Part shown: in pieces, positions 6,294 to 30,938 of the stretch
Position numbering within the stretch: the stretch's first letter is position 1
Layout of the letters: each line of letters opens with the position of its first letter
NCBI GenBank assembly: GCA_026710545.1
Contig: JAPOQU010000055.1
Coordinates: 41,312 to 105,311, forward strand
Direction of reading: 5' to 3'
Length of the DNA: 64,000 bases
DNA from: Gammaproteobacteria bacterium
GTDB lineage: Bacteria > Pseudomonadota > Gammaproteobacteria > Eutrophobiales > Eutrophobiaceae
Position numbers and translations under genes: made by a program
Notes under the pieces: generated by a model
Seen by the model: the letters and a program-made list of their open reading frames with translations, nothing else
What the model was told of the DNA's origin: nothing
Databases searched by the model: none

Positions 6294-7760
6294 TCAGCGT
6301 TCGTAGGATTCCCGGCGGGAGGATTCGGACAGGGGTACCAGGTATTTCTCCGGGTTGCTGAGTATCTTCGCGCGCGCTGCCTGCAGCGTGGCTTCGCCCG
6401 CATAGCTGACGGACGAGCGCAGGTGGCCGCGCACGCGGTGCAGGATGTCGTTGACGCTGCCTTTGTACGGCACCTGTATTTCCTGGCCTTCGGGCGGGGT
6501 ATCGAGCGCGGCGTCGGTCGCTTCCGCGTTCTCCGGGTCATAGAGTGATTCCAGCACCGCTTCCGGTGAGGTCATGCCGCGGTAAATCTTCTTCTTGGTA
6601 TGGGTGACGGGGTCTTCGATGACCCTGCCGGGCGCCTCGTCGGTGCCGGACAATGCGCTGCCCAGCATGACCGTAGTTGCACCGCACACCAGGGCGAGAA
6701 AGATGTCCTTGTCCGTCTTGATGCCGCCATCGGCCATGATGGGGATTGAATCGCCCAGTGCCTTCCAGGTTTCGCGTATCGCCTGTAACTGCGGCACGCC
6801 GGCTGCGGTTTCCAGGCGGGTACGGCAGCCGCGGCCCGGCCCCACGCCGACCTTGACCGCGTCCGCGCCGATGTCCCGCATGAAGCGCGCCCCCTCGGCG
6901 GTGGCCACGTTGCCGCACACCAGGGGTACGCCGCCGAAGCGGCCGCGGAATCGTTCAACGGCCTCTTCCATCACCGTCGAATGGCCGTGGGCAATGTCGA
7001 TGAACAGGCAGTCAGCTCCTGCTTCCAGCAGTGCCGCACTACGGTCGAGGTAATCGCCCCGTGCGCCGATCGCGGCAGCAACCAGCAGGTGTCCCTTGTC
7101 ATCCTTGCTGGAGTAGGGACGTTCCCGCAGGGAAAAGATATCGCGACGCGTGATCAATCCGTGGATGCGTCGCTCGGCATCTACCAGCGGCAGGCGCTCG
7201 ATGCGATGTTCAAACAGTATCTTCGAGGCCTGTTCGATGGAAATCCCGGGTTTGTCGACAACCAGCCGGTCGAAAGAAGTCATGAAACGCTCCACAGGCT
7301 GGTCATCGTAGTCGCTGTTCCAGGGCATATCCCGCTGCGACAGCAGGCCGGCCAGGATATTGCTGCCGGGTTCCGTCTCGATCAGAATGCCGGTAATTGA
7401 ATGATTATGAGCGAAATTCCTGGCCTGCTGAATGGTAGTGCCCAGCGGCAGGCACAAGGGCTGATTGATGACCGCGCTCTGGCTGCGTTTTATCTGCGCT
7501 ACCTTGCGCGCCTGTCTCTCGATGGTCATGGCGCGATGGATCACGCCGATACCGCCTTCCATCGCCATCGCCCTGGCCATGTCCGCGCCGGTCACGCTGT
7601 CCATATTGGACGAGACGATGGGCAGTTCCAGGGAGATATGGCCGGTCAGTACACTAGCCAGACTGATGTCCCGGCGCGAGCCCGCCATCCCTTTTTGCGG
7701 GCGAAACAGGAAGTCGTCGAAGGTTTTTCCGACCCAGGATACATTATCTAAAGGTGTCAT
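6294..7760 (-). CDS. IMP dehydrogenase family protein (IMPDH/GMP reductase fold with CBS pair; non-canonical catalytic loop)
   Basis: 488 aa, clearly alignable to GuaB (GGIGVIH, CBS pair, ...GNVATAEGAR...ADAVKVGVGPG). The catalytic loop reads GVGPGRGCRTR rather than the canonical GIGPGSICTT (from memory), so this is probably a paralog rather than housekeeping guaB. GC-rich, core-like. Confidence 0.8.
   Translation of the reverse strand: MTPLDNVSWVGKTFDDFLFRPQKGMAGSRRDISLASVLTGHISLELPIVSSNMDSVTGADMARAMAMEGGIGVIHRAMTIERQARKVAQIKRSQSAVINQPLCLPLGTTIQQARNFAHNHSITGILIETEPGSNILAGLLSQRDMPWNSDYDDQPVERFMTSFDRLVVDKPGISIEQASKILFEHRIERLPLVDAERRIHGLITRRDIFSLRERPYSSKDDKGHLLVAAAIGARGDYLDRSAALLEAGADCLFIDIAHGHSTVMEEAVERFRGRFGGVPLVCGNVATAEGARFMRDIGADAVKVGVGPGRGCRTRLETAAGVPQLQAIRETWKALGDSIPIMADGGIKTDKDIFLALVCGATTVMLGSALSGTDEAPGRVIEDPVTHTKKKIYRGMTSPEAVLESLYDPENAEATDAALDTPPEGQEIQVPYKGSVNDILHRVRGHLRSSVSYAGEATLQAARAKILSNPEKYLVPLSESSRRESYER
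6297..6334. repeat. direct repeat copy B (gcgttcgtaggattcccggcgggaggattcggacagg), overlapping the last codons of the IMPDH-family gene
   Basis: Pairs with 4889-4925. Confidence 0.8.
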
Positions 7761-8177
7761 GAAGAACTTAGAAGATTAGACAGTGCTGGAGTGTCAGCTT
7801 GTTGATGATATGATACAGTTAACCGTGGCCAATCTATCAATTCTCACAGCTTTGATCAACGTCCGCATTCTAATTTTATCTTTGGTATTAGGAAACTTTG
7901 TAGTGTCTAAATACGTAAGCTTCATGCGAAATGATACATGCTTGATGATAGTCATGTCATCACTTAACGATTTATCAGTATTTGCTGCGTATTTATTATT
8001 AGTCAAACGTGTAATGACGCGCACACAATCAGGTAAATTATCGGAACGATACATTTGGGTGCTGGAGCAGAAAAAATGTGGATTTACTACTCGTCATCAA
8101 TTTGCTGCTCACCTTGCAGTAACAAAAAAAGTTATCCCAATCGAAATTTCATAGATGCCGAGAAGCAAATTATTTCT

Positions 8178-9674
8178 ATGAATGTTTTAGTTACTTTCAC
8201 AGGGTTCCATGATCCATACAGCCTAGGGTTAGTTGGGGAGGAGCAACAGGCTGGCCCGATCGTTTCCTTGGTAAGTGCAAAATCATTCGACCATGTAATA
8301 TTGATTTCTACGCTGAATACGAAGGAAAACACGACAGCGACGGAATCTGTACTCAAAGAGTTGAATCCTGAAGTGGGTATCTTAATCATCGAAGCTGGTT
8401 TGAGCGACCCTACGGATTATGCAGAAATATTAAATTTACTTCGCACCAAACTTTTGCCAAAATTAAATTTATTTGAAACACAGATAAACCTCTTTGTTGC
8501 TGTTGCGTCTGGTACACCACAAATGCACGCAGCATGGTTACTCTTGGTATCAAGCGGCGAAATACCTGCTCGAATTTTGCATATCAGACCAGCTCGATTT
8601 GTAACCACGGATAAACCTCTCGTAAGTGAAATCGACCTTTCATCGAAAGAGTTTCCTGAGGTTCGGAGTATTAGCTTGTCGAGACTGGAGTCTCCCGACA
8701 CGGCACTAGATGTCAACAAACTCATCCAATCGTTAGGAATTGTGGGTGACCACCCTGAACTCTCGAAAGCGCTTGATATATCAGCTACGCTCGCCTCCTC
8801 GAGTGTGCCAATTCTATTACTTGGAGAGACCGGAACTGGCAAAGAGTTACTGGCCAGATTCATCCACTTGGCCAGTGGCCGACCTAAGGATTGCTTCGTA
8901 GCAATCAACTGCGCAGCAATTCCTAGAGACTTGGTTGAGAGCATACTATTTGGTCACTGTAAAGGCGCCTTCACGGGAGCAGTATCCGACCAGAAGGGCA
9001 AATTTGCACAAGCAGATGGTGGCACGTTGTTTCTGGATGAACTTGGGGAACTACCGTTAGATACACAAGCGAAGTTGCTACGTGTTTTACAAGAAGGGCA
9101 GATTGAACCTGTCGGCACTGGTGAACCTCATAACGTAGATGTACGATTGATTGGTGCAACAAATGTCGACCTGCCTCGATCCATAAAGCAGGGTAACTTT
9201 CGTGAGGATCTCTATTACCGCTTGAATGTTGGCGAGATCCGCTTGCCACCGCTCAGGGAACGCCGTAGCGATATTCCGAAAATCGCACTCACATTGCTAG
9301 ATAAGGTAAATACAAGTCTGAAAGCGCCGAAACGACTGACCACAGGCGCGCTACAGCGATTACAGGCGCATGATTGGCCTGGAAACATTCGAGATCTGTC
9401 GAACACAATTGAGCGTACCGCACGACTAACACGCTCTGCGGTCTTAGATACAGACGATCTCATATTTGGCGAACCAGTAATCCATGCGGAGCCTTGGTCA
9501 ACATTACCAGAGCCAGCCGAGGGTTTTTCATTGGAGAATTTTCTATCTGATGCGCGAAAGCAGATTGTGATGCGGGCGCTGAAGATTAGCGGTGGTAATC
9601 AGAGTAAGGCAGCGCTCCTTCTTGGATTGACCCCCCAAGCCGTACACAAATATGTACAGAAGAATAGAACATGA
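8178..9674 (+). CDS. RtcR-like sigma54-dependent transcriptional activator (N-terminal CARF domain + AAA+ sigma54-interaction domain + C-terminal HTH)
   Basis: Start chosen at MNVLVTFTGF (ATG 8178); the longest ORF runs from 8055. Central domain has Walker A GETGTGKELLARFIH, the GAFTGA sigma54-contact motif and ESILFGH. C-terminal Fis-type HTH (QSKAALLLGLTPQAVHKYV). The N-terminal ~230 aa aligns with my recollection of the E. coli RtcR CARF domain (VLVTFTGFHDPY ~ VAFGFVGTVLDY; ASGTPQMHAAWLLLVSSGEIPARILHIRP ~ TTGTHVAQICWFLLAEARYLPARLIQSSP). Confidence 0.8.
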   Translation: MNVLVTFTGFHDPYSLGLVGEEQQAGPIVSLVSAKSFDHVILISTLNTKENTTATESVLKELNPEVGILIIEAGLSDPTDYAEILNLLRTKLLPKLNLFETQINLFVAVASGTPQMHAAWLLLVSSGEIPARILHIRPARFVTTDKPLVSEIDLSSKEFPEVRSISLSRLESPDTALDVNKLIQSLGIVGDHPELSKALDISATLASSSVPILLLGETGTGKELLARFIHLASGRPKDCFVAINCAAIPRDLVESILFGHCKGAFTGAVSDQKGKFAQADGGTLFLDELGELPLDTQAKLLRVLQEGQIEPVGTGEPHNVDVRLIGATNVDLPRSIKQGNFREDLYYRLNVGEIRLPPLRERRSDIPKIALTLLDKVNTSLKAPKRLTTGALQRLQAHDWPGNIRDLSNTIERTARLTRSAVLDTDDLIFGEPVIHAEPWSTLPEPAEGFSLENFLSDARKQIVMRALKISGGNQSKAALLLGLTPQAVHKYVQKNRT

Positions 9675-9685
9675 TTTTAACCAAG

Positions 9686-9702
9686 GTTTAAATAATTTAA
9701 AC
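9686..9702. promoter_or_regulatory. perfect palindrome GTTTAAATAATTTAAAC (7-3-7), 12 bp after the regulator stop
   Basis: Seen directly. AT-only, so not an intrinsic terminator. Candidate UAS/IHF-type site ~90 bp upstream of the sigma54 promoter. Confidence 0.35.
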
Positions 9703-9789
9703 TTCCATTGAAAATGGGTGATATCCAAAAATAAGCTTTGTTTAGATAACTACTTGAAAATAAATGAAATAAATATTTGTTGCGAAATG

Positions 9790-9805
9790 TGGCATAGCAT
9801 TTGCT
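9790..9805 (+). promoter_or_regulatory. sigma54 (RpoN) -24/-12 promoter TGGCATAGCATTTGCT
   Basis: GG (9791-92) and GC (9803-04) have exactly the consensus spacing of TGGCAC-N5-TTGCW, with one mismatch. Located 40 bp upstream of the ATG at 9845, with a GAGGAG Shine-Dalgarno in between, and immediately downstream of a sigma54 activator gene. Confidence 0.65.
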
Positions 9806-9844
9806 TTATCAGGGTATGACATCTTAGCCCAGAGGAGAAAAGCG

Positions 9845-10129
9845 ATGACACAGTTTAGAGTTTCAAAAATAATTGACGGGGATACATTCGAAGTGGCAGA
9901 GGGCTGGGAGTGGCATGGCAAAACCGGCTCAAGGGTGCGGCCTACCGGATATAACGCCCCGGAGTTACATACCGCTGCCGGGCAGTTGGCGAAACAAAAG
10001 CTCACAAGATTAATCCAGGGTGAGATAGTTAGTTTTGGAGAGGCTTATAGGATTGACCGTGGCCGTATTGTCTGCGTCGTGTATTATAATGGTCGTAATT
10101 TGGCGGACTATTTCAGAGAGTATCAATAA
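9845..10129 (+). CDS. thermonuclease (SNase/micrococcal nuclease) family protein, short form
   Basis: 94 aa with IDGDTFEV...RPTGYNAPE...GE.V.F...D.RGR.V..VY.NG.N, paralleling the SNase IDGDT / DxPE / YGR motifs. The Ca-binding Asp equivalent to SNase D40 appears replaced by Asn (YNAPE). First gene after the sigma54 promoter. Confidence 0.55.
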   Translation: MTQFRVSKIIDGDTFEVAEGWEWHGKTGSRVRPTGYNAPELHTAAGQLAKQKLTRLIQGEIVSFGEAYRIDRGRIVCVVYYNGRNLADYFREYQ

Positions 10130-10143
10130 CTCTCGCGAGGGAT

Positions 10144-12423
10144 ATGACGAAAGACACCACCAAAGAAACCGATGCTAGGATCGCCATTGATGACTGGCTA
10201 CGTCAGGCAGGTTGGGAGCCTTCAGATAAGTCTCAGGTCCAGACCGAGGTAAAGGCCAGTGGTGGTTTCGGTGGTATAGCTGATCCTGGGAGCGCTAGCG
10301 AACCTGGCGCTCTACATACATCTGATGGGGATGTTTTGCTTAGCGGCCGTGCTGACTACGTTTTGCTCGACCAGCGCGGGCAGCCCCTTGCGGTGGTCGA
10401 GGCAAAAAGGAAGGCCATCCATCCCTATGTAGCCAAACAACAAGCGCTCCCCTATGCCAAACAACTTGGTGCGCCGTTCATCTTTCTGACCAACGGTGAA
10501 CTGATCTACTTCTGGGATTATCAGAACGATGATGCCCGCATCGTCAACTCATTCTTCTCCCGTCGTGACATGGAGCGACTTGTGCATATGCGTAGTGAAC
10601 GCATGCCGCTCGCGACGATTGATATCCCTGACTACTTTACCCGCCAAGGTGAAACTCGCGAATTACGCCCATATCAGCGGGATGCTATGCGGGCTATGGA
10701 TCGCGCATTGGAACTTGGAAAGCGCCGTTTTCTGATCGAGTTGCCCACTGGTACGGGCAAGACCGACCTCATTTGTCAGTACATTCAACGGCTGATGCAG
10801 GCAGGACATGCGGAACGCGTCCTGTTTCTGGTTGACCGGGAACAGCTTGCTAAACAGGCTCTTGAGGCAATCACCGATCTGCTTGGTCATTACAGTCACT
10901 ATTGGCTCAAGCCCGGCATAGTACGCACCGAGCAGCAGATCACTGTTTGCCTGTTGCAAACCATGATCGGCCGTTACCATGAATACACTAGTGGTTATTT
11001 CGATATCGTCATCGCGGACGAATGCCACCGTTCCATATATGGTACCTGGCAGTCGGTATTGACCCATTTCGATGCCATTCATATCGGTTTAACTGCTACA
11101 CCGGCAGCATATATCGAGCGCAATACCTTCAGTTTCTACCAGTGCAAAGATAATACGCCAGATTTTTCTTATCCTATCCAAGACGCTTTCCAAAATGATT
11201 ATCTAGTACCCTACCGCTTCGCCGAAGGTATTACCGAGATAATCGCAGAAGGCGCGGACGTCGATGAGGAGCACTATGACCCCGCCGAGTTCGAGCGTAA
11301 GTGGACCAACGAAAAGACCAATCGTCTGATGATGGAGGAGTTTGACAAGCTGGCTTGGCAGAACTATCAAAGCCTGGCGCCAGGCCAGAAACCCGCACCG
11401 GGGAAGTCCATTGTATTTGCCATCACCAAACACCATGCCGCACGTCTGGCTCAGTATCTCAACGACTTGCATCCAGAATACAACGGACACTATGCTGAGG
11501 TGATCACCAGTGATGTGCAGAATACGGATGAACTGATCCGCAAGTTCAAGCGCGAGGATTACCCGCAAGTAGCCGTGAGTGTCGGTATGCTGGATACTGG
11601 TTTCGATTGCCGTGAGATCCTCCACTTAGTGATGTGTCGACGTGTGCGTAGTCCCATTCTCTATCAGCAGATGCGCGGGCGAGGTACGCGCACAGCACCG
11701 CATATCAGTAAGGGGAAGTTTGTGATTTACGACTTCTTTCGTAACCATCAGTACTTCAACGATAGCGATACAGATATCTTTATCGGTACGGGTACAGGCC
11801 ATGTTCCGACGATCCGTAAACCAAAGAGCATGTCCCAACGTGATCTCATTGAACTGGGGCTCGAAGATGAATGGTTGGAAGCAGTTAACTATGTCGAAGT
11901 GGGGCCCCAAGGAGAGCGCATCGACAAGCGTCAATACGTCACCGACTGGGAAAATACCGTTCGTGATGCCGTTGTGCACGATCCGATTATCAGGAAAATT
12001 CGATCGGGCAATTTGCTCAGTGATGGTGAAGAGCAGCAACTTGCTGTCCGACTCAACCAACCCGAACGCTACTTCAATGAAGAAAACCTGCGTCGTGCCT
12101 ATCGCAATCCGGGCGGCTCGCTGGTGGACTTCATTCGTGCAGCGCTGGGCCAGCAGAAGATCAAGAGCCGCGAAGAAACAGTGGACGAGAACTTCCGAGC
12201 CTGGCTGGTTACCCGCAACCTCAGTGCCGAGCAGGCACAGTACCTGGCTATGCTGAAAAACCGTGGTATTGCACGTGGCAAGCTAGCGCTGGACGATCTG
12301 TTTCAACCGCCACTCTCCATACTCAATGCCGCAAACCTCGGAATAGAATTCTTTGGCGAGCAGGGACTGAAAAAGGTCGTTGATGAAATGAACGATACAT
12401 TATTTAGCAGCGACAATAGATGA
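10144..12423 (+). CDS. hsdR: Type I restriction enzyme R subunit (HsdR), compact 759-aa form
   Basis: N-terminal restriction-endonuclease fold (VLLDQRGQPLAVVEAKRK) followed by SF2 helicase motifs: Q LRPYQRDAMRAM, I LPTGTGKT, II DECHRS, III LTATP. Immediately followed by hsdM and hsdS. Confidence 0.8.
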   Translation: MTKDTTKETDARIAIDDWLRQAGWEPSDKSQVQTEVKASGGFGGIADPGSASEPGALHTSDGDVLLSGRADYVLLDQRGQPLAVVEAKRKAIHPYVAKQQALPYAKQLGAPFIFLTNGELIYFWDYQNDDARIVNSFFSRRDMERLVHMRSERMPLATIDIPDYFTRQGETRELRPYQRDAMRAMDRALELGKRRFLIELPTGTGKTDLICQYIQRLMQAGHAERVLFLVDREQLAKQALEAITDLLGHYSHYWLKPGIVRTEQQITVCLLQTMIGRYHEYTSGYFDIVIADECHRSIYGTWQSVLTHFDAIHIGLTATPAAYIERNTFSFYQCKDNTPDFSYPIQDAFQNDYLVPYRFAEGITEIIAEGADVDEEHYDPAEFERKWTNEKTNRLMMEEFDKLAWQNYQSLAPGQKPAPGKSIVFAITKHHAARLAQYLNDLHPEYNGHYAEVITSDVQNTDELIRKFKREDYPQVAVSVGMLDTGFDCREILHLVMCRRVRSPILYQQMRGRGTRTAPHISKGKFVIYDFFRNHQYFNDSDTDIFIGTGTGHVPTIRKPKSMSQRDLIELGLEDEWLEAVNYVEVGPQGERIDKRQYVTDWENTVRDAVVHDPIIRKIRSGNLLSDGEEQQLAVRLNQPERYFNEENLRRAYRNPGGSLVDFIRAALGQQKIKSREETVDENFRAWLVTRNLSAEQAQYLAMLKNRGIARGKLALDDLFQPPLSILNAANLGIEFFGEQGLKKVVDEMNDTLFSSDNR

Positions 12424-12442
12424 CAGAAGGTGGTAACAACGC

Positions 12443-14095
12443 ATGAACCGCAGTTTACGAAGAAAGCTGGATCACATCACTGATGTCCTCTGGGCAGGTG
12501 GTGTTACTAATCCGGTTACCTATATTGAGCAGATCTCTTATTTGATCTTTCTGAAGTTGTTGGATGAGGAGGAACAGGACCGTGAACTGCGCGTTCGCCT
12601 CAGAGCCGCTAGTGGCAACGCTAAACTGTTGTTCCCCCAGCAGGCCGAACGTTATCGCTGGTCCAAGTGGCGTTTCATGAGCGGACCAGAGCTTCGCGAC
12701 TTCATCCGGGACGAAGTATTCCCTTACTTGGCATCGATAGCCAAAGATGAGCCTGAAGTGGCCGAGTATTTCCGCGATGCCGTGTTGGAGATTGTAGACC
12801 CTAATGTGCTGAAGCAGGTGGTGGACGAGATCGATACTTTCGAATTTCGCAAGCTTGGGCCAGACGTCAAAGGCGATATCTTCGAATATTTATTAACCCA
12901 TCTTGGTCAGTCGTCCCTGAATGGACAGTTTCGCACACCGCGCCAGATCCGTTCTTTCATGGTGGAAATGGTCGATCCAGAACTGGGTGATTCCGTTTTC
13001 GATCCAGCATGTGGAACAGCCGGTTTTCTTATAGACACAGTAGACTATCTGCTTGCTAAGTACAGCGAGACAGTACAAGAATATCCTATCTACGGCGAAG
13101 ACTGGTTGGAGAAGCGTGGACAGACTCTCGCTGAAGCTAGAAAAGAAATACCAAATCTCCAAACCTATCGCAAGGGTACAGGTGAAAAAATTCCAGACTG
13201 GAGCATGCTCGAAGCCTCGATTTTTGGCGTGGATGTTTCTCGTCAGATGATGCGCATAAGCATGATGAATCTCATACTACACAGCGTACGTCGAGCAAGG
13301 CTTAAACGCGGCAATTCATTGTCGGACCACGGAGGACTTACGGAGGAGGATTTATCGCGTCGCTACAAAGTGATACTGTCCAATCCGCCCTTCGCTGGAC
13401 AGATCCCGAAGGATTCCATCCGCTCAGACCTCTACACTAGTTCCAGGAAAAGTGAATTGCTCTTTCTGGGCTTAATGATGGAACATCTCGCCCCAGGTGG
13501 CCGTTGCGCTGTTGTGGTGCCGGAAGGTTTGCTGTTCGGCTCTACCAGCGCGCATAAGAATCTCCGAAAGAAACTTGTTGAGGATTTCGCTCTGCTCGCC
13601 GTGGTTTCTCTGCCAGCGGGTGTGTTTAGACCTTATGCGGGAGTAAAGACCAGCGTGCTGGTTTTCTGCAAACCCCAAAACGGAGGCAAGATAGAGAAAG
13701 CAGAGAAGATTTGGTTCTATGAGGTTTGCAACGACGGCTATGACCCCGACAAGATCTCTGATGGTGGTCGTGTGGAAACCCCCAACCTCAACGAGATTCC
13801 TGACCTACTCGCCAAATGGCAGGAGTACAAAGCATCTAAGTTCGATAATCCGCCTGGTGTGGAAGCCAATAGAATTCTGGAACCGGGGAATGAAATACCG
13901 CGATGTTGGTGGGCGGACGTGAAGACATTGGCGATTAATGATTTTCATTTGGCAGCGGGGCGTTACAAGCCGCAGGTCGCAGAAGCGGTACCAGAAGAAG
14001 ATCCGCTAGAATTAATAAAAGATACTTTAATAGTCGAAAAGGAGCTAACCCGAGGGCTTGAAAGATTGTTGCAAGAATTGGAAGCATCCCAGTGA
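12443..14095 (+). CDS. hsdM: Type I restriction-modification N6-adenine DNA methyltransferase subunit (HsdM)
   Basis: 550 aa; SAM motif I FDPACGTAGFL and catalytic motif IV NPPFAG; HsdM N-terminal domain. Confidence 0.9.
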   Translation: MNRSLRRKLDHITDVLWAGGVTNPVTYIEQISYLIFLKLLDEEEQDRELRVRLRAASGNAKLLFPQQAERYRWSKWRFMSGPELRDFIRDEVFPYLASIAKDEPEVAEYFRDAVLEIVDPNVLKQVVDEIDTFEFRKLGPDVKGDIFEYLLTHLGQSSLNGQFRTPRQIRSFMVEMVDPELGDSVFDPACGTAGFLIDTVDYLLAKYSETVQEYPIYGEDWLEKRGQTLAEARKEIPNLQTYRKGTGEKIPDWSMLEASIFGVDVSRQMMRISMMNLILHSVRRARLKRGNSLSDHGGLTEEDLSRRYKVILSNPPFAGQIPKDSIRSDLYTSSRKSELLFLGLMMEHLAPGGRCAVVVPEGLLFGSTSAHKNLRKKLVEDFALLAVVSLPAGVFRPYAGVKTSVLVFCKPQNGGKIEKAEKIWFYEVCNDGYDPDKISDGGRVETPNLNEIPDLLAKWQEYKASKFDNPPGVEANRILEPGNEIPRCWWADVKTLAINDFHLAAGRYKPQVAEAVPEEDPLELIKDTLIVEKELTRGLERLLQELEASQ

Positions 14096-15348
14096 AGTGG
14101 ACTACTACAACAATACAGCGAGTTTCGCAACAAACACAAGTGTGTAATCCTCGGGAACGTCAAGAAAGTCTGTTTAAGTATATAGATATATCATCAATTG
14201 ACCGCGATAAAAAAATTATTTCGCAGGCACCTGAAATAAAGGGAGCCAAGGCCCCAAGTCGCGCACGGAAAGAAGTAAATGCGGGTGACATCTTAGTATC
14301 CACTGTCAGGCCAAACTTGAATGCTGTGGCAATCGTACCGCCTGAATTGGACAGCCAAATCGCTTCTACTGGTTTTTCAGTCCTGCGTCCGGAAAGTGAT
14401 CTTATAAATGGACGTTATCTGTTTTATTTTGTCCAGACGTCTGGTTTTATTGATGCTTTGACGTCGAAAGTAAGAGGAGCCCATTACCCTGCAGTTTCAG
14501 ATACTGATGTAAAGAATGTTGAGCTTCCATTGCCTACGATAGCCGAACAACATCGCATCGTCGAAATTCTCGATCAGGCCCATGCTCTGCGTAAGAGTCG
14601 CACAAACGCTGACACTAAAGCTGTCCGCATCCTACCTGCATTGTTCTATCAGATGTTTGGCGATCCGTTATTGAATACCAAGGACTTTGAAAGAGTTTGC
14701 CTTGGCGACGCTGGTATTGCTGAGATCAATCCTCGGGCACCATCCCGAGACTTACCTAATGATCTGGAAGTTAGCTTCGTTCCAATGGCTGATGTAAATG
14801 AGGATTGGGGGCAGATTACTGGTTGCCAAATTAAGGAGCTAGGTGAAGTTAAGAAAGGATTTACTTCTTTTTTGGAGAACGATGTTCTATTTGCCAAAAT
14901 CACACCCTGTATGGAAAATGGAAAGGCTGCCATAGCTAGAGGACTCGGTAACGGATTGGGTTATGGTTCCACAGAATTTCATGTATTGCGAGCAGGAGAC
15001 CTGGTTACCCCAGAATGGATTTATGGGTTGACTAGACTGGACATTTTTAGAAATGTCGCAAAAGGAAATTTTATCGGTTCGGTGGGCCAACAGCGAGTAC
15101 CCGCTGACTTTTTGCGCAGTTTTCGCGTTCCTCTCCCTCCAAAAAAATTAATAGAAAAATTTTCAATTGTTGTGCGCGAGCTTCTTCAAGAGAACGATTA
15201 TAGGCGAGAGGCAGAAAAAAGAATTTCACAGTTAGTTCAAATAACAATGCATCATGCGTTTTCAGGAAAGCTGACTGAAGGCTGGCGAAGAGCCCACCTG
15301 AAGGAGGAGTTCCAAGAAATAGAGCACCAAGCGAGAGCAGGTACTTAA
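14092..15348 (+). CDS. hsdS: Type I restriction-modification specificity subunit (HsdS)
   Basis: 418 aa with two target-recognition domains separated by conserved central and distal repeats. Start overlaps the hsdM stop. Confidence 0.85.
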   Translation: MKWTTTTIQRVSQQTQVCNPRERQESLFKYIDISSIDRDKKIISQAPEIKGAKAPSRARKEVNAGDILVSTVRPNLNAVAIVPPELDSQIASTGFSVLRPESDLINGRYLFYFVQTSGFIDALTSKVRGAHYPAVSDTDVKNVELPLPTIAEQHRIVEILDQAHALRKSRTNADTKAVRILPALFYQMFGDPLLNTKDFERVCLGDAGIAEINPRAPSRDLPNDLEVSFVPMADVNEDWGQITGCQIKELGEVKKGFTSFLENDVLFAKITPCMENGKAAIARGLGNGLGYGSTEFHVLRAGDLVTPEWIYGLTRLDIFRNVAKGNFIGSVGQQRVPADFLRSFRVPLPPKKLIEKFSIVVRELLQENDYRREAEKRISQLVQITMHHAFSGKLTEGWRRAHLKEEFQEIEHQARAGT

Positions 15349-15363
15349 GGAATTTTTGAGGAT

Positions 15364-17034
15364 TTGATAATGATAAAAACGCTCTTCACCGGCAACTTCA
15401 AAGCCTTCGCCGAGACCCAACGAATTCCAATCAGACCGATTACAATGATCTTTGGTCCAAATAGCGCTGGTAAATCGAGCTTCATCCATAGCTTAGCGCT
15501 AGCGAGCGAAGCCGAGCGTACCGGACGGTTGGATGTATTCAAAACTGAGGTCGGCGGTAGTGCCATCGACCTGGGTGGATTCCGGCAGTACATCCATCGT
15601 GGCGAGGCAAAGCGTCGAATGGAATGGGGTGCAGAGTTAGATGTGTCATCACTTCAGGGTCGGCTAGAGGAACTTCTGGCTCCAGTCAATACGCTCAAAG
15701 TGGTTATGTTCACAGGTGTGGCACTGGACAACGAAGAACGACCGTTAGTAAGCGCCGAACCGGCTGTTACAGGATACGAGTTATTCGGAGATGACCAACT
15801 CCTATTGCGCATGAGTCGTCGGCCGGATGGGAAACTGCGGCTGGACCGGCTGAACCACGAGCACTTGGTCTTTCGTGAGGTTCTTAAGGCTATCGTCACT
15901 ACTGCAACCACAACGAACACTGTTACAAAGGAGGATTTCGAGGGGATTGACGACGTCATCAACGTTATGGTGCCTCGACTGAGTATAGGGGTGACTAAAC
16001 TGTTCCCCGAAGGGCTGACTGATCGGCGTGTCGATAATGAGGAACAGGAGCAAGCCACATTGTTTCCGGTTAGCAAGGGCAATCGGAGTGAGGACCTTGC
16101 TAATGCGATCAATTTCTTTCTGCCAAAGACACTTGATGAACTCATCATGGGGACTAGCCAGATTCTGGCGCAGGAACTCAAGAAACTGCAATACCTTGGT
16201 CCTCTCCGTTCTTTTCCGCCCCGGCACTTGGCCTTTTCGGAACACGAGGACGCAAACTGGTACGCAGGTGGCGGTTACGCTTGGGATATTGTACGCAGGG
16301 ACGACACGGTTCGCTCTGCGGTCAATGAATGGCTGGGATCGGAGGTATTGAAGACACCGTATGAACTTGTAGTCCGTCAGTTGGTGGGTATCAGCGATTT
16401 AGATCCTGTATTGGAGGAAGGCCTTGAGACGATCATTGATGACGGGGTGGAAATTGAGCATGAGCCGGAGTCCGAGTATACGGGTGGCGGAGCCTATCCG
16501 ATACTCCGGGATTCGGAGGCAGAGGCACGTCGTCTTCAAGAGTTGATCCAGACGTCCGATTTGAAAAAGCTCAAGGAGCTGGTCCTTATTGACAGACGAT
16601 CCAATACGGTGGTGTCACACCGTGATGTGGGGATCGGTATTACCCAGGTACTGCCTGTGCTTGTGTTGGCCTATGCATCTACAGACAAATTGATCGCCAT
16701 GGAGCAGCCGGAAATTCACCTACACCCTGCGCTACAGGCAGAGTTAGGTGACGTATTCATTAATTCGGCGTTGGGAGGGCGCGGCAATCGATTCATACTG
16801 GAAACTCACAGTGAGCACCTCCTTTTACGTATTATGCGTCGTATGCGAGAAACAGATGAACAAATGTTACCGGAAGGCACTAAGCCGATACATCCTGAAG
16901 ATGTGATGGTTCTTTACGTCGAGCCAGATGGTGGTCGTAGTATTGTGCGCGAGATGCCATTGAATGCCCGGGGCGAACTGGTAAAAGCGTGGCCAGGCGG
17001 TTTCTTCGAAGAAGGTCTACGGGAGATATTCTAA
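15364..17034 (+). CDS. ABC-type (AAA_21/AAA_15-like) ATPase, first gene of a two-gene module
   Basis: 556 aa. Walker A FGPNSAGKSS at residues ~29-38; Walker B/D-loop LIAMEQPEIHLHP; H-loop ETHSEHLL near the C-terminus, with a long inserted region between. This is the architecture of ATPases from OLD/Septu/AbiL/PARIS-type defence modules. Starts 16 bp after the hsdS stop. Confidence 0.8.
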   Translation: MIMIKTLFTGNFKAFAETQRIPIRPITMIFGPNSAGKSSFIHSLALASEAERTGRLDVFKTEVGGSAIDLGGFRQYIHRGEAKRRMEWGAELDVSSLQGRLEELLAPVNTLKVVMFTGVALDNEERPLVSAEPAVTGYELFGDDQLLLRMSRRPDGKLRLDRLNHEHLVFREVLKAIVTTATTTNTVTKEDFEGIDDVINVMVPRLSIGVTKLFPEGLTDRRVDNEEQEQATLFPVSKGNRSEDLANAINFFLPKTLDELIMGTSQILAQELKKLQYLGPLRSFPPRHLAFSEHEDANWYAGGGYAWDIVRRDDTVRSAVNEWLGSEVLKTPYELVVRQLVGISDLDPVLEEGLETIIDDGVEIEHEPESEYTGGGAYPILRDSEAEARRLQELIQTSDLKKLKELVLIDRRSNTVVSHRDVGIGITQVLPVLVLAYASTDKLIAMEQPEIHLHPALQAELGDVFINSALGGRGNRFILETHSEHLLLRIMRRMRETDEQMLPEGTKPIHPEDVMVLYVEPDGGRSIVREMPLNARGELVKAWPGGFFEEGLREIF

Positions 17035-17036
17035 GG

Positions 17037-17969
17037 ATGTTGCTCGCTGAGTATGCGATAACTCCAGACGTATTTGATGCGACGTCCTATGTCAACGAGG
17101 ATCTATGTGCTGCACGATTGGAGCTCATTCGCGAGGTAATGTTAAATGAGGGCGTGATACGCGATCTTAGAAATGGAAGCTGGTCTAACTTGTTCAGAAG
17201 TGACCATCGCTCCTGGCATCGTAGAGCTAAGGAGCTTGCCAAAAAGCTAGCCTCACAAAATAGATTAAGACCCTTTGTGCCACAGCTGGCAGTGAAGCCA
17301 TCCGTAGATTCAGAGTGGTGTGATGAGGCGTTGGTTACTCATGGGATCGAACCCTTGACAGGTATCATTGTAACGGACACGATTTCAGACGGCTACATAG
17401 GGAATCCCCTTGTTTCAAGGGTCGATAGATTGAACAGCGCTCCATGGTGGAGCGGAAGAAAACCATCCATGCGCCTCAATAGAACATTTACAGATTATCT
17501 AAACGCATTGTCATTGGTACTGAGACATGCCAACTCCATTATGTTTATTGACCCGCATATAGATCCGACTCAGCCCAAGTACAATGATTTTATTGAATTG
17601 ATAAAGAGAGCGGGCAATCGCAACCCATTACCATTGATTGAGATTCATCGAGTTTGTTATCGTGGCTCGGGACAACATAGGAAGATATTAGATCTTCAAC
17701 AATTGGAGGCTAGTTTCAGAAATGAACTTACCCAACCACTGCAGAGAGTGGGCTTGACTGCTGAAATTTTTGTCTGGGATGATTTTCATGACAGATATGT
17801 CTTAAGTAATCTAGTAGGAATTGCGCTCCTTAATAGTCTCGATACAACAATTATGCAAAATTCAACAACGACCTGGACTCGTTTAGGCCACAAAGACAGG
17901 GATGATGTGCAAAGAGAATTTGACCCAGCAAGTAATCAGCATAAATTAAAGAAGAAGTTCGCAATTTGA
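17037..17969 (+). CDS. hypothetical protein (311 aa), partner of the ABC ATPase
   Basis: ATG 2 bp after the ATPase stop, so translationally coupled. The longest ORF is 16989-17969. Acidic clusters (IMFIDPHIDP, VWDDFHDRY) could belong to a metal-dependent nuclease (TOPRIM/DUF4435-like?), but I cannot assign a domain from sequence. AT-rich. Confidence 0.6.
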   Translation: MLLAEYAITPDVFDATSYVNEDLCAARLELIREVMLNEGVIRDLRNGSWSNLFRSDHRSWHRRAKELAKKLASQNRLRPFVPQLAVKPSVDSEWCDEALVTHGIEPLTGIIVTDTISDGYIGNPLVSRVDRLNSAPWWSGRKPSMRLNRTFTDYLNALSLVLRHANSIMFIDPHIDPTQPKYNDFIELIKRAGNRNPLPLIEIHRVCYRGSGQHRKILDLQQLEASFRNELTQPLQRVGLTAEIFVWDDFHDRYVLSNLVGIALLNSLDTTIMQNSTTTWTRLGHKDRDDVQREFDPASNQHKLKKKFAI

Positions 17970-20962
17970 TTACCACTTTCTTCAAGATTCTGGTTTATGT
18001 ATTGGCTACGTTGATACTGCCTGCTATCGGGTTAGCAGCGGATGAGGTCATTGAGGAAGTTGTGGTAACCGGTTCCCACATCAAGGGCGCCCACGCGGAT
18101 GAGTCCCTGCCGGTCACCAGCCTGGCGAGGGATGACCTGGCTTACGAAGGCTCTCCCACCATAATCGACCTCATCAAGAACCTGTCTTTCAGCCAGGGAG
18201 CGGACGGCGAATCCGACTTCTTCCAGGCCGGCGCCGGACCCGACCGGGCAACGGCGAACCTGCGCGGGCTCGGACCCAGCCGCACCCTGGTGTTGCTCAA
18301 CGGGCGCCGCACCACATGGTCGCCCCATGCGATCAGCGCCCAGGCCCAGTTACTGGTGGACGTGAATATGCTGCCGTCGGTCGCCCTGGAACGGGTCGAG
18401 ATATTACGCGAAGGCGCCGCATCCACCTATGGTTCCGATGCTATAGCAGGAGTAATGAACTACATCACCCGCAGCGATTTTTCGGGGGTGGAGGTCTCGG
18501 CTGACTACAAGGGCATCGATGGTTCTGCCGGCGATGCTGCAGCAGGCATTATCCTCGGTGCCGACCTGCTGCAAAACCGGGGTCACGCGGTCAGCTCCTT
18601 CGGTTATATGAGGCGCAGCCGGCTCGAACTCATCAAACGTGACTGGGCGGTAGTGCCCTATGAGCAGAGTCCCCTGGGCGGCTGGTCCAGCATCGGCCGG
18701 CCGTCAGTTGTAGTGCCCCTGGAGCGCTGGCAGGCAGCGCCCGTGGGTGGTTTCACCGGTATGCTGGCAAGCGGTATCGTCGACCCGAACTGCGAAAAAC
18801 TCGGCGGCGCCCGTACCCACCAGGGTGTGCTGGGTAATCCGGACGGTGGTTTCTGCCATTTCCAGTATACGCCGTTCTACAGCCTGGCCGAGAAAACAGA
18901 GCGCTGGCAGTGGTTCACGGAACTCTCCCTGGAGGTGAATGATTCCACTACGCTGTCCGCTGAATTGCTCATGACGGACAGCCGCGTGCCCTCGCTGCAT
19001 ACCTCACCGTCTTATCCGCCCAACCGGTTGATCGACGAGAACCGGACCATACGCGCAAATCATCCCGGACTGGTCGACATGGCAAGCAAATACCCGGACC
19101 TGTACGGCGACTATGCCTGGTGCGACAGGGACTATTGTCGCTGGGACGGGGATCCGGAGCAGTCTCTGGCAGGTATTCCCCCGGCCTGGCAGGAGGTGGC
19201 CTGGTTCTTCGGCCGCTCCTACGGTCAGGATGGTCCGGTGCGCGGCACCGATCAGCAGACCGGGTTGTGGCGGGCGAACCTGGCCCTGGACGGTTCGTTC
19301 GCCGACTACGACTGGACTGTGGCGGCTACCTGGTCCGGATCGAAAAGAACATTCCATGCCGGCGATACGATGGTGTACCGGGACGCCAGGGCGCGCCAGG
19401 GACTTGCCGGTGCGGAGTGCGAGCAACTGGCGCCCAACCAGTATGACGAGGACGGCAGGATATTTTTTTCGCTGGAAACACTCATGACCCATGCCGGGCA
19501 GGGGCCCTGCCGGTACTGGACGCCTTTTTCCAATTCCATGGCAGGTTCACACCCGCGTGTTCCCGACGGTCTTGCAGCAAACCCCGACTATAACCCGGCA
19601 TTGAATAACCAGGAAATCTACGACTACATTGTGAACGACGATTACGGCAACCGCGGCAAGACGTCGCTGTTGGTGCTGGATGCCGTGTTTTCAGGCATCC
19701 TGCCCTGGTGGAGTCTGCCGGGTGGCGGCTTGAACTTTGCGGCCGGGTTCCAGTGGCGTAGCGAAACCTATAAAACCAACCCCCTCGGATTCAGTAATTT
19801 CGAGCTGTTCCCCTGTGCGGCAGGTCCCGAGATAGCTGACTGTACGATCGATCGCAACGGCCTCTACAGTTTCCTGGCTCCCGGGTTTCCCATCGATGAA
19901 GAACGTGATATCTATTCCTTCTTCGGCGAACTGCAGGCGCCCGTGACCGATGACCTGGAAGCTCATTTTTTCCTGCGCTACGAGGATTATGGCGGTTCAG
20001 TCGGCGCAAGCATCGACCCGAAGGTACACGTACACTGGCAGGCATTGCCCGGCATCGGTTTGCGCGCCTCTGTCGGCACAACCTTCCGCGGACCCACGCT
20101 GAACCAGATTGTTTCTTCCAATTCTTCGAATTCATTTCAATACGTGGCCTCGACCGCTGCTTTCAAGCGCATAGACACCAAGGGCAATCCACAGCTTGAT
20201 CCCGAAGAAGCCATCACGATCAATGCGGGGGTATTAATCGACCACGACAATCTCTTCCACGACGGGGACTACCTGACACTCAGTGCCGATTACTGGTCAT
20301 ACGACTTTGAAAAACCGCTGGTGACCGAACCCTATAACGCGGTGCTTGAGCGCGGCTGCCCCGGCGCTGTTACCGACCCCTGCGATGTATCCAGTCCCTA
20401 TTTCGAGCGGCTGTCCTTCGCCGGCAGTCCGGTCGCCGCCAATGTCGAGATTATCGACATCAACATCATCAACGGCCCCGATATCAAGACCGACGGCATC
20501 GACTTCAGCGGACTTTACTCCGCACCGGTGGGCCCCGGTCAGTTCAGCGCCGGTTTCAACGGCACGAGAATCCTGGGCTACGACATCGACGCCTGGGAAC
20601 TGGGAGAGGCCTACAACGCACTCGGCCGGTTGAACTACACCACGTCCCTGGCGCGTACCCTGGTCAAGCTGAAGTTGCGGGGTTTCCTGAACTACGCCTG
20701 GAAATCGTTAAATATGCGCTACGGCGTCAGTTATGCAGACGATTATGTAGACATTGACAGGAAAATCGACAGCCACGTCACCCACGATATACACGCAAAC
20801 TACAGGCTGTTGCAGGACCGGCTGGAACTCTGGGTTTCGGTCGTCAACCTGCTGGATGAAGACCCGCCGTTTGTACCCCGGGAGATGAACTACGATCCGT
20901 TTACCCACGACCCGTACGGACGTACGTTCAAGGTCGGTATTCGCTATAGAATGGGCGAATAA
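17966..20962 (+). CDS. TonB-dependent outer-membrane receptor
   Basis: 998 aa. Signal-peptide-like N-terminus, then plug-domain motifs (EEVVVTGS, LRGLGPSRTLVLLNGRR, ERVEILRE, YGSDAIAGVMNYITR) and a long beta-barrel. The ATG overlaps the preceding stop (ATGA). The first ~60 nt are AT-rich and the rest GC-rich. Confidence 0.85.
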   Translation: MITTFFKILVYVLATLILPAIGLAADEVIEEVVVTGSHIKGAHADESLPVTSLARDDLAYEGSPTIIDLIKNLSFSQGADGESDFFQAGAGPDRATANLRGLGPSRTLVLLNGRRTTWSPHAISAQAQLLVDVNMLPSVALERVEILREGAASTYGSDAIAGVMNYITRSDFSGVEVSADYKGIDGSAGDAAAGIILGADLLQNRGHAVSSFGYMRRSRLELIKRDWAVVPYEQSPLGGWSSIGRPSVVVPLERWQAAPVGGFTGMLASGIVDPNCEKLGGARTHQGVLGNPDGGFCHFQYTPFYSLAEKTERWQWFTELSLEVNDSTTLSAELLMTDSRVPSLHTSPSYPPNRLIDENRTIRANHPGLVDMASKYPDLYGDYAWCDRDYCRWDGDPEQSLAGIPPAWQEVAWFFGRSYGQDGPVRGTDQQTGLWRANLALDGSFADYDWTVAATWSGSKRTFHAGDTMVYRDARARQGLAGAECEQLAPNQYDEDGRIFFSLETLMTHAGQGPCRYWTPFSNSMAGSHPRVPDGLAANPDYNPALNNQEIYDYIVNDDYGNRGKTSLLVLDAVFSGILPWWSLPGGGLNFAAGFQWRSETYKTNPLGFSNFELFPCAAGPEIADCTIDRNGLYSFLAPGFPIDEERDIYSFFGELQAPVTDDLEAHFFLRYEDYGGSVGASIDPKVHVHWQALPGIGLRASVGTTFRGPTLNQIVSSNSSNSFQYVASTAAFKRIDTKGNPQLDPEEAITINAGVLIDHDNLFHDGDYLTLSADYWSYDFEKPLVTEPYNAVLERGCPGAVTDPCDVSSPYFERLSFAGSPVAANVEIIDINIINGPDIKTDGIDFSGLYSAPVGPGQFSAGFNGTRILGYDIDAWELGEAYNALGRLNYTTSLARTLVKLKLRGFLNYAWKSLNMRYGVSYADDYVDIDRKIDSHVTHDIHANYRLLQDRLELWVSVVNLLDEDPPFVPREMNYDPFTHDPYGRTFKVGIRYRMGE

Positions 20963-23635: not shown

Positions 23636-24505
23636 TTACCTCGGGTTGAACACGGCAAGCAGTTCGCGGACTTCCCCGCGGTTGCCGGCGTCGCTGCTGA
23701 TGTTTCTCCTGACCTTGAAACCGGTAATTTCTGCGTCTCTCACGCGGTATAACTCGCGCACCTGCCTGGTGTCGTGGTTTGAAATGACGACCTGGACCCG
23801 GTTGTGCGCCAGTTCGCAGGCAATATCGGCCAGGCGCACCTGGTCGTCCCAGGTGAAACCTCCCGCGTGGTAATCGGTAAAATGTGCTGTCTCCGATAAC
23901 GGAACATACGGCGGGTCGCAATAGACCGCATCGCCGGGACGCGCCAACGGCATGCTCTCATCGAAGCGTGCCTGCAGCAGCGTGGTGTTCTGTGCGCGCC
24001 CGACGAAGGCCAGCATTTCTTTTTCAGGGAAGTAGGGTTTGTCATAGCGGCCGAACGGCGTATTGAAACCGCCCTTGCCGTTGTAGCGGCACAAGCCGTT
24101 ATAGCCGTGCCGGTTCAGGTACAGAAACAGTGCTGACTTCCTCCTGGCGCGCCGGGTTTCATTGAATTCATCGCGATAAGCATAATAGGCCTCGCGGGTA
24201 TTGGCCGCGCCGTTAAAAAACCTGCGGCAATAGCTGATGAAAGCAGCGCCTTCTTCACACAACCGGCGGTACAGGCCGATCAGGTCCGGGTTGGCGTCGG
24301 CGAGCAGGTATGCGCCGTAATCCGTATTGAGAAATACCGCGCCCGAGCCGACAAACGGTTCTATCAGCCGTTTCCCCGGATGCAGGGCATTGCGTATCCT
24401 CGAGAGAAGCCGGTATTTCCCCCCGGGCCATTTTAAAAACGGCCTGATGTCCGGCCTGGATTTGTCACCGGTACGCCCGGATGCAGGCAGAGGCTCAGCC
24501 CGCAT
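23636..24505 (-). CDS. dam: DNA adenine methyltransferase, Dam family (orphan, GATC-type)
   Basis: FLKWPGGKYRLLSRIRNALHPGKRLIEPFVGSGAVFLNTDYGAYLLADANPDLIGLY matches the Dam N-terminus (FLKWAGGKY...EPFVGAGSVFLNT). Catalytic DPPY motif VYCDPPYVP. No cognate restriction gene adjacent. Confidence 0.8.
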   Translation of the reverse strand: MRAEPLPASGRTGDKSRPDIRPFLKWPGGKYRLLSRIRNALHPGKRLIEPFVGSGAVFLNTDYGAYLLADANPDLIGLYRRLCEEGAAFISYCRRFFNGAANTREAYYAYRDEFNETRRARRKSALFLYLNRHGYNGLCRYNGKGGFNTPFGRYDKPYFPEKEMLAFVGRAQNTTLLQARFDESMPLARPGDAVYCDPPYVPLSETAHFTDYHAGGFTWDDQVRLADIACELAHNRVQVVISNHDTRQVRELYRVRDAEITGFKVRRNISSDAGNRGEVRELLAVFNPR

Positions 24506-30934: not shown

Positions 30935-30938
30935 TTTC
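30912..30938. repeat. att core: 3' end of tRNA-Leu (ttcgactccggccatcggcaccatttc)
   Basis: Identical 27-mer recurs at 33636-33662; a degenerate copy lies at 34713-34732. Confidence 0.85.

Follow-up and report, generated by a model that had tools for sequence, protein, structure and literature searches.

The 64,000-nt stretch of DNA analyzed here, hereafter the window (Gammaproteobacteria bacterium, assembly GCA_026710545.1, contig JAPOQU010000055.1, positions 41,312 to 105,311), carries two adjacent genes directly downstream of a type I restriction–modification (R-M) system, encoding an ABC-type ATPase and a 310-aa partner protein. Judging by homology and architecture, this pair is very likely a Menshen-type transducer and effector module that lacks the Menshen sensor NsnA and is linked instead to a sigma-54 promoter with an RtcR-like activator. 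As the best explanation of the locus as a whole, we favor, with moderate confidence, a horizontally acquired and regulated defense operon of ~10 kb that ends in an NsnB-type ATPase and a PIN–phospholipase D (PLD) effector. A role of the pair itself in defense is likely, and its specific mechanism, for which we infer the ligand, the docking, and the substrate, is put forward tentatively.

The open reading frame (ORF) of the ATPase opens at a TTG at 15364 (15364–17034, 556 aa), the size given in a preliminary description of this DNA made from the sequence alone. The gene likely begins at the ATG at 15370 and encodes 554 aa, since this codon stands 7 nt past a GAGGA motif and the same start is called in 89%-identical relatives. 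The ABC-type ATPase proposed in that description was borne out by Pfam matches to AAA_21 (2.7e-18) and AAA_15 (4.5e-17), and the motifs it had listed, i.e., the Walker A GPNSAGKSS (15454–15480), LIAMEQPEIHLHP, and the H-loop ETHSEHLL, are all present and essentially invariant in 64 ATPase homologues. The Walker B region reads h-h-A-h-E-Q-P-E-x-H-L-H-P in 64/64 of these homologues, with an invariant E-Q-P-E-x-H-L-H-P at 16702–16728, and thus carries E-Q rather than the usual D-E. Toward the C-terminus, a DUF3696-like helix spans ~16888–17016, and the corresponding domain reaches 27.6 bits in a paralogue. Differences from the 89%-identical relative fall mostly on third codon positions (23/19/89 for positions one to three).

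Among PADLOC profiles, the best matches of the ATPase were PDC-M55A (3e-42), HEC-03B (5.3e-40), and NsnB (3e-38). The NsnB match is a single alignment of ATPase residues 3–550 with profile positions 1–334 of 345, and the best stretch of the HEC-03B match covers just the C-terminal third of the protein. All other matches were weaker, including AriA (2e-19), AbiLi (3e-9), GajA (2e-8), PtuA (7e-8), and mad3 (1e-7), while the NCBIfam MAD3 model gave 19 bits against a cutoff of 420, and the sole phmmer match in the PDB was the N-terminus of an OLD nuclease (E 0.009). The resemblance to PARIS raised in the preliminary description did not hold up at this level, the AriA match being generic and far below those to PDC-M55A, HEC-03, and NsnB.

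The partner follows without delay: the ATPase stop codon TAA (17032–17034) is separated by two bases (“gg”) from the partner ATG at 17037, confirming the tight coupling noted earlier, and the 311 residues then counted for the partner had included the stop codon. The second ORF is a genuine conserved protein and not a chance ORF. It has >567 full-length homologues of 305–317 aa (41–89% identity) in many phyla, and when a library of cluster representatives (50% identity) was searched, 1404 of them matched at E ≤ 1e-3, including 292 at E ≤ 1e-30; the top 150 of the 1404 are mostly full-length at ~310 aa, with a minority that are shorter and apparently truncated. Here too, differences from the 89%-identical relative concentrate at third codon positions (19/20/50). 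The family derives almost entirely from metagenome-assembled genomes or uncultured lineages, and a tblastn search of plasmid and phage collections with the partner returned no match, which would explain why RefSeq-based surveys missed it.

Curated models were of little help with the partner. Nothing usable was found in Pfam (E ≤ 10), NCBIfam (E ≤ 1), or PADLOC (E ≤ 10), and PHROGs (E ≤ 1) gave two weak matches to families of unknown function (0.006 and 0.06). The DUF4435/TOPRIM, HNH, and RloB/DUF4276 signatures that the preliminary description had listed for checking are without a match even at E ≤ 10. The sole PADLOC match was NsnC, with an E-value of 0.045 and confined to the PLD half, where the reference NsnC has a BECR domain, so that the match is probably spurious. 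Consistent with the preliminary description, no named system in Pfam, PADLOC, or NCBIfam covers the pair.

A structural model nonetheless assigned a predicted fold to the protein for which no motif had previously been recognized. The AlphaFold2 model, computed with 41 homologues as input, has a mean pLDDT (predicted local distance difference test) score of 93.8 and combines a PIN fold with a single-lobe PLD fold, with domain limits taken from the secondary-structure map. The N-terminal domain was matched to PIN domains (SMG5 8.7, Utp24 7.6, VapC ~6–7), while the best structural match of the model was the MIT_C domain of MITD1, and the PLD nucleases Nuc, NucT, BfiI, SauUSI, and Zucchini were also among the matches. 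This PIN plus MIT_C-PLD architecture was published in 2025 for the NsnC of Menshen. The novelty of the effector type, which had been considered possible, is thus only partial; no curated model describes the family.

Invariant alignment columns include FID172P, H204, W-x-D-F-H251-D-R253-Y, D269, and a C-terminal D-x-x-Q-R-E-F. In the model, D172 (codon 17550–17552) stands right after strand 167–171, and H251-D-R253 (17787–17795) stands right before strand 254–257. Compared to the classical H-x-K-x4-D-x6-G motif, the partner reads H251-D-R253-x4-[D/N]258-x2-G261, i.e., an arginine replaces the lysine. In the PIN-like domain, two aspartates are invariant, namely D11, which follows beta1, and D91, which caps the N-terminus of the helix ahead of beta4; at the second and fourth of the usual PIN positions, the alignment revealed no acidic residue that is conserved. 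Two diverged paralogous effectors from one Latescibacterota locus keep D172, H204, H251, and R253 (as H-N-R-Y) and have no acidic residue at the D91 position. Since these paralogues keep the PLD residues and lose D91, the PLD domain would be the catalytic part and the PIN-like domain would serve mainly for docking or recognition. From its modeled fold, the partner is a probable nuclease.

The pair occupies the 3′ end of a low-GC island. Between 8.2 and 18.0 kb of the window, the GC fraction is 0.43–0.52 compared to 0.53–0.63 in the flanks, and at 17–18 kb, i.e., around the partner gene, it drops to 0.43 against 0.57–0.62 in flanking DNA. With guaB (6294–7760, minus strand) on one side and a TonB-dependent receptor gene (17966–20962) on the other, the island consists of exactly the activator, a staphylococcal nuclease (SNase)-like gene, hsdRMS, the ATPase, and the effector. 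The type I system is complete, with HsdR, HsdM, and HsdS all found, and the ATPase ATG lies 21 nt past the end of hsdS. Placement directly 3′ of hsdS, as previously described, is therefore confirmed, and it is conserved across phyla. Downstream of the sigma-54 promoter, all intergenic gaps are ≤21 nt, and a scan for sigma-70 promoters and terminators between 7600 and 18,600 gave no signal above chance. Judging from this spacing, the ATPase and partner genes would form the 3′ end of a single regulated operon. The earlier proposal of a candidate defense module appended to hsdS is partly supported; the conserved unit is larger and includes an RtcR-like activator and a sigma-54 promoter that had been missed.

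The activator at the 5′ end matches the PADLOC profile RtcR_PspF2--CARF_AAA_HTH (3.2e-135, covering 1–478 of 481) and the Pfam families Sigma54_activat (1e-65), HTH_8, and RtcR (24.5 bits), and contains the sequence KGAFTGAV. Its start was set at 8178 because this methionine aligns with profile position 1, in agreement with the 498-aa call in two close relatives (L083 and L084). The activator stop codon is followed, ahead of the next gene, by a canonical −24/−12 element, TGGCATagcatTTGCT, with a predicted transcription start near 9816 and a ribosome-binding site, GAGGAGAA, ahead of the ATG at 9845; the promoter is kept in the 89%-identical relative L083. Enhancers of sigma-54 promoters usually lie ~90–110 bp upstream, and a candidate upstream activating sequence (UAS) is found ~90–110 bp upstream of the −24 element, straddling the activator stop codon and including a perfect palindrome, GTTTAAATAATTTAAAC, at 9686–9702. 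Tandem repeats of a similar kind occur at the same place in L021, L022, L036, L038, L049, and L083. Palindromes of this type straddle the activator stop in loci that have the R-M layout of the window and carry the 94-aa gene, and the activator may bind them. The locus thereby has the arrangement of an RtcR-type sigma-54 defense operon: a protein with a CARF domain, an AAA+ domain (GAFTGA), and a helix-turn-helix (HTH) at the 5′ end, all genes in one direction, and a −24/−12 promoter after the first.

Table 1 Features of the island carrying the ATPase–partner pair (window coordinates).
Feature	Position	Strand	Evidence or note
RtcR-like enhancer-binding protein: CARF, sigma-54 AAA+ with GAFTGA loop, Fis-type HTH	8178–9674	+	
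Candidate enhancer (UAS), tandem palindromic TTYAAAC-N4-GTTYAAA-type half-sites	9675–9714	.	Palindrome scan
Sigma-54 promoter (−24 GG, −12 GC)	9790–9805	+	Between activator stop and next gene
94-aa protein, staphylococcal-nuclease-like OB fold	9845–10129	+	First gene past promoter
HsdR, type I restriction subunit	10144–12423	+	Pfam ResIII, EcoEI_R_C, HSDR_N, Helicase_C; PADLOC REase_I 7e-82
HsdM, type I methyltransferase	12443–14095	+	Pfam N6_Mtase, HsdM_N; PADLOC MTase_I 1e-135
HsdS, type I specificity subunit	14092–15348	+	Pfam Methylase_S; PADLOC Specificity_I 1e-76
NsnB-type ABC ATPase, 554 aa	15370–17034	+	Pfam, PADLOC, motif conservation
Partner (effector), 310 aa + stop	17037–17969	+	ORF, homologues
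Effector N-terminal PIN-like domain, ~residues 1–140	17037–17456	+	
Effector C-terminal single-lobe phospholipase-D (MIT_C/PB-PLD1-like) domain, ~residues 141–310, + stop	17457–17969	+	

We evaluated the conservation of this arrangement in 84 loci, 80 fetched from species-representative genomes and 4 from assemblies, of which the first 82 (L001–L082) were annotated by phmmer with the window proteins as queries. The ATPase gene lies directly 5′ of the partner gene in 69 of the 74 loci with enough sequence. For the 60 loci with ≥9 kb upstream, a type I R-M system and/or an RtcR-like gene precedes the pair in 55: 23 have the activator only, 15 both R-M and activator, 17 R-M only, and 5 neither. 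Overall, two architectures could be distinguished. In architecture A, the layout of the window, an RtcR-like activator is followed by the 94-aa gene in some loci, by hsdR-hsdM-hsdS, by an insert of 0–6 kb, and finally by the ATPase and partner genes. This order was seen in Gammaproteobacteria, Desulfobacterota and other “Delta” lineages, Planctomycetota, Ignavibacteriota, Thermoanaerobaculia, Spirochaetia, and Cyanobacteria. In architecture B, found in Vicinamibacterales, Latescibacterota, and Binatia, the ATPase and partner directly follow the activator without any R-M genes, and more ATPase–effector paralogue pairs often lie downstream. The R-M-embedded position emphasized in the preliminary description thus applies to the window, but the same pair also occurs right behind the activator without R-M.

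The promoter is conserved along with these genes. On a strict pattern, the fetched loci contain 46 −24/−12 elements on the gene strand and 11 on the opposite strand. Under a relaxed criterion (GG and GC required, ≥9 of 11 positions matching), 34/37 loci have a match between −30 and +400 nt relative to the activator stop, compared to 3.4% of random 430-nt segments. In architecture B, the activator stop abuts the promoter (TGA-TGGCAC) and the ATPase gene begins within ~30 nt. This immediate succession of activator TGA and −24 element (TGATGGCAC) was observed in L005, L010, L012, L015, L020, L030, L037, L055, L058, L060, L061, L063, L065, and L074; since the start codon lies ~15–30 nt past the −12 element, the leader would be very short, and since the promoter abuts the activator stop, the enhancer would lie inside the activator coding sequence. 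Downstream ATPase paralogues often have a −24/−12 element of their own, as in the Vicinamibacterales loci L005, L012, L015, L037, and L074, while the corresponding position yielded no such element in L051, L056, L057, and L080 from Latescibacterota. Several loci (L051 at 8292–17688, L056, L057, L080, L010, and L005) have one RtcR-like gene followed by two or three tandem modules of an ATPase and a ~320-aa effector, and the additional effectors are paralogues that have diverged from the partner (hhalign probability 96–97%, motif H-N-R-Y).

Other defense genes are recurrent neighbors of the pair in relatives, including prokaryotic Argonaute (pAgo), SIR2, OLD, RAMP, DUF3800, and pPIWI nuclease genes. 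Inserts between hsdS and the ATPase gene encode OLD-type ATPase-TOPRIM proteins, other AAA_21 ATPases, DUF6119, a pPIWI-associated nuclease, DUF3800, DUF1016/YhcG, a RAMP protein, and SIR2, and a DUF262 protein is not among them. Individual loci also contain, downstream of the pair, a Piwi (pAgo) gene and a DpnII/MboI-like nuclease (L001, 9169–12680), or a 1273-aa SIR2 protein upstream and a Metallophos and SMC-like pair downstream (L002, 2229–6050 and 8947–12508). No DUF262 gene was found among the window neighbors, 10 scanned upstream proteins, or the precomputed Pfam lists of related loci.

Building on the genes, folds, motifs, conserved linkage, and promoter motifs established above, we tentatively propose the following course of events. 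The RtcR-like activator would sense an infection or RNA-damage ligand via its CARF domain, bind the palindromic enhancer located at the 3′ end of its own gene, and fire the sigma-54 promoter, from which the SNase-like gene, hsdR, hsdM, hsdS, the ATPase gene, and the effector gene would be transcribed as one unit. The type I enzyme would then restrict unmodified DNA, while oligomers of the ATPase would hold the effector through contacts between DUF3696 and the PIN-like domain. In response to a phage cue, the ATPase would release or activate the PLD domain by binding or turning over ATP, and this domain would cleave nucleic acid and thereby stop the phage or abort the infection. The pattern of sequence conservation can be read in the same terms: the effector is more uniformly conserved across all fetched loci (41–59% identity) than the ATPase (28–62%), whose C-terminal quarter is nonetheless 50–69% identical even in architecture B and, following published NsnB–NsnC models, is the part expected to contact the effector.

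Several points weigh against this interpretation. The family of the pair is known from sequence and predicted structure alone. At the sequence level, none of the NsnC, HEC-03, or PLD profiles matches the partner significantly, and a PDB profile search with the partner alignment A1 gave 0 matches at E ≤ 10, so the link to PB-PLD1 rests on fold and motif position. For the window ATPase, DUF3696 reaches 21.8 bits, just under the Pfam cutoff of 22, and with E-Q at Walker B, ATP may be bound but hardly hydrolyzed. The extent of the transcript is read from spacing only, given that neither terminators nor internal promoters gave a signal above chance. Finally, the 17 R-M-linked loci mentioned above show no activator in the fetched sequence, several of them with 2–3 kb upstream of hsdR, and the activator may lie beyond the fetched flank in some. 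Within 2–3 kb 5′ of hsdR, no RtcR-like gene was seen in L066, L069, L070 (cyanobacteria), and L073, all with the full hsdRMS–ATPase–partner cassette. Cyanobacteria are not known to have sigma-54, which would fit a loss of the regulator from the cyanobacterial cassettes.

Given that the pair follows hsdS in 32 of the 60 loci, often at a distance of 0–70 nt, the R-M-linked pair, including that of the window, could instead act as a guard that depends on the type I enzyme, keeps watch over it, and is triggered once HsdRMS is disabled by an anti-restriction protein of a phage. HsdR and HsdM are 64–74% identical across the phyla of related loci, i.e., above the pair itself, implying that the cassette travels as a unit, and ABC-ATPase defenses triggered by anti-restriction have precedent, e.g., PARIS and PrrC. 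In addition, R-M-linked and R-M-less loci diverge strongly in the N-terminal portion and insert of the ATPase, with identities of 45–62% in architecture A and 28–35% in architecture B, the latter over the full length. However, the 23 loci with the pair right behind an activator have no enzyme to guard, unrelated defense genes stand between hsdS and the ATPase gene in many R-M loci, and a contact of the pair with Hsd proteins is conjecture. We consider this guard function rather unlikely.

The modeled effector raises a different question, namely whether it is a nuclease at all. Its top structural match, MITD1 MIT_C, is a membrane-binding domain, Streptomyces PLD and phosphatidylserine synthase score level with the nucleases, and the classical HKD lysine is an arginine. 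The PLD domain might accordingly act on or bind membrane phospholipid, killing or arresting the cell via the membrane, or be a non-catalytic adaptor. Yet small single-lobe PLD proteins in defense are nucleases, the invariance of D172, H204, H251, and R253 and their retention in diverged paralogues argue for catalysis, and the PIN-like domain points to nucleic acid. A non-nuclease effector is therefore improbable.

Since the regulator is an RtcR homologue, the module could also be controlled like rtcBA and serve repair, with a Tdp1-like PLD phosphodiesterase trimming the 3′ ends of damaged RNA or DNA and no part in immunity. Against this, the genes always stand among defense genes (R-M, OLD, pAgo, SIR2, RAMP), the nearest relatives of the ATPase belong to validated or candidate defense systems, the island is of low GC and horizontally acquired, and tandem diversified paralogues fit an arms race better than housekeeping, which makes a repair function highly improbable. 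The weakest alternative, a degenerate or mis-filed known system (Menshen minus nsnA, or a poorly recognized PARIS, Septu, AbiL, or Gabija), could appeal to the NsnB, AriA, PtuA, AbiLi, and GajA profile matches and to gene sizes like those of AriA/AriB, but is scarcely credible and was rejected, because the AriA, PtuA, and GajA matches lie 20–35 orders of magnitude below NsnB and HEC-03, cognate partners are absent (no TOPRIM/DUF4435, HNH, AbiLii, or helicase signature in the partner at E ≤ 10, and no DUF262 gene adjacent in the window or among the scanned genes directly 5′ of the ATPase in relatives), and the NsnA-less order is the rule across 82 loci and the 1404-cluster family.

Returning to the regulated defense operon, a bolder version of this reading, which we regard as possible but on balance doubtful, is an alarm-driven immune operon. 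Here, the CARF domain would detect cyclic-phosphate RNA ends (or another nucleotide signal), the RNA fragments stemming from phage attack or from the cell’s other RNase-based defenses, and sigma-54 would induce restriction together with a sensor-less Menshen-type layer. The activator would then replace NsnA as the sensor, at the level of transcription, and tandem copies of the regulator–promoter–module cassette would have arisen in Latescibacterota and Vicinamibacterales. Should this hold, the operon would represent a widespread and regulated defense unit with several layers, mostly in uncultured lineages and invisible to current defense-finding tools. Independently of this bolder version, the locus defines a large family (1404 clusters at 50% identity, for which Pfam, NCBIfam, and PADLOC have no model and PHROGs no significant match) as the likely effector of an ABC-ATPase defense module, and it shows the Menshen transducer–effector pair to exist without its DUF262 sensor. 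The combination of candidate enhancer, sigma-54 promoter, and CARF activator is a concrete circuit by which the long-predicted RtcR-like induction of restriction and other defenses becomes directly testable.

Other features of the window were recorded alongside the island. For the 94-aa SNase-like protein, a phmmer search of the PDB returned nothing significant. Just upstream of the RtcR-like gene, a small ORF (~7897–8154, plus strand) without a family match is kept in L083 (106–363) and L084 (519–776), where it is called as 85 aa; small RelE/BrnT-like genes have been noted at the same position in RtcR-led loci in the CoCoNuT paper (PMC11090510). On the far side of guaB, just beyond the island, a low-GC patch (local GC 0.46) encodes a Fic/DOC-family protein that carries an HTH at its C-terminus (5068–6279, plus strand). 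A Dam-like D12-class N6-adenine methyltransferase without an adjacent restriction gene is encoded at 23636–24505 (minus strand) and is also found near the island in L083. Further downstream, a tRNA-Leu(GAG) gene (30849–30934) is followed by a low-GC stretch (0.39 at 31–33 kb) encoding an AbiEi antitoxin-like protein (31052–31915) and an AbiEii nucleotidyltransferase toxin (31899–33278), and this stretch (30849–33278) looks like a second defense or toxin–antitoxin islet.

Among named systems, Septu, AbiL, Gabija, MADS, and RloAB were rejected on the grounds of weak ATPase matches and because their partners (PtuB HNH, AbiLii, GajB, Mad4 DUF4276, and RloB) were not found, and PDC-M55, a three-gene candidate cassette, was rejected as the identity of the pair because the match is limited to its ATPase profile. 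PARIS is similar in comprising two genes for an ABC ATPase of ~550 aa and an effector of ~310 aa, often beside R-M, but AriB is a DUF4435/TOPRIM nuclease, whereas the window partner combines PIN and PLD without DUF4435/TOPRIM. Likewise, PrrC of the EcoprrI hsd locus is an ABC-type ATPase defense gene within a type I R-M operon, but it is a single protein with a fused anticodon-nuclease domain, lies between hsd genes, and has neither a PLD/PIN partner nor sigma-54 control.

In terms of regulation, the closest precedents are RtcR-led loci. RtcR-like CARF-NtrC-HTH proteins have been described beside R-M systems, with predicted sigma-54 activation (Makarova et al. 2014, PMC4012209), and in co-directional superoperons led by RtcR, a type I R-M system separates the regulator from the CoCoNuT module at the end (Bell et al., eLife 2024, PMC11090510); in both papers, sigma-54 activation by infection-derived ligands is a prediction. 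The window shares with these superoperons the RtcR homologue at the 5′ end, the single direction of transcription, and the type I R-M system before the terminal effector module. It differs in that this terminal module is an NsnBC-like ATPase–PLD pair and not McrBC/HEPN, and in that a sigma-54 promoter and a candidate enhancer were located and are conserved. We found no paper on an NsnBC-like pair at the end of an RtcR-led operon, with the ABC-ATPase survey of Krishnan et al. 2020 standing outside this comparison.

HEC-03 is a two-gene defense of an ABC ATPase and a PIN protein that was experimentally protective, with both genes required (Payne et al., 10.1101/2024.01.29.577857). Its ATPase profile matches the window ATPase, and HEC-03, too, is found embedded in other defense systems. 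By contrast, its partner is described as a VapC-like PIN protein, while the window PIN-like domain is fused to a PLD domain and, as read from the sequence, apparently has only two of the four usual acidic positions occupied; the profile of the HEC-03 PIN partner gave no match to the window partner at E ≤ 10.

The greatest likeness is to Menshen, as described by Li et al. (NAR 2025, PMC12065111). The window ATPase is a full-length NsnB match that combines an AAA_15 core with a DUF3696-like tail and departs from the usual Walker B, reading E-Q where E-N is reported for the Menshen NsnB, and in both systems the ATPase gene stands immediately 5′ of the effector gene. The effector shares the plan of the “inPIN + PB-PLD1” NsnC, i.e., a PIN-like N-terminus and an MIT_C-like PLD C-terminus; the published NsnC has a D/E after beta2 and HDR before beta5, and the window effector likewise has an acidic residue after beta2 and HDR before beta5, a comparison made from the description of PB-PLD1. 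In the published predictions, the NsnC PIN-like domain is held between two DUF3696 helices of NsnB. On the other hand, the window and the related loci examined are without NsnA (ParB-DUF262 + ParBDB), the defining sensor of Menshen encoded 5′ of the ATPase, and because the Menshen census took DUF262 as its anchor, NsnA-less pairs of this kind were beyond its reach. The window effector has no significant match to the PADLOC NsnC model (E 0.045), and its family is uniform, at ~310 aa and 41–59% identity across phyla, whereas canonical NsnC is hypervariable and polymorphic. Most distinctively, the window pair is wired to an RtcR-like sigma-54 activator and usually also to a type I R-M system.

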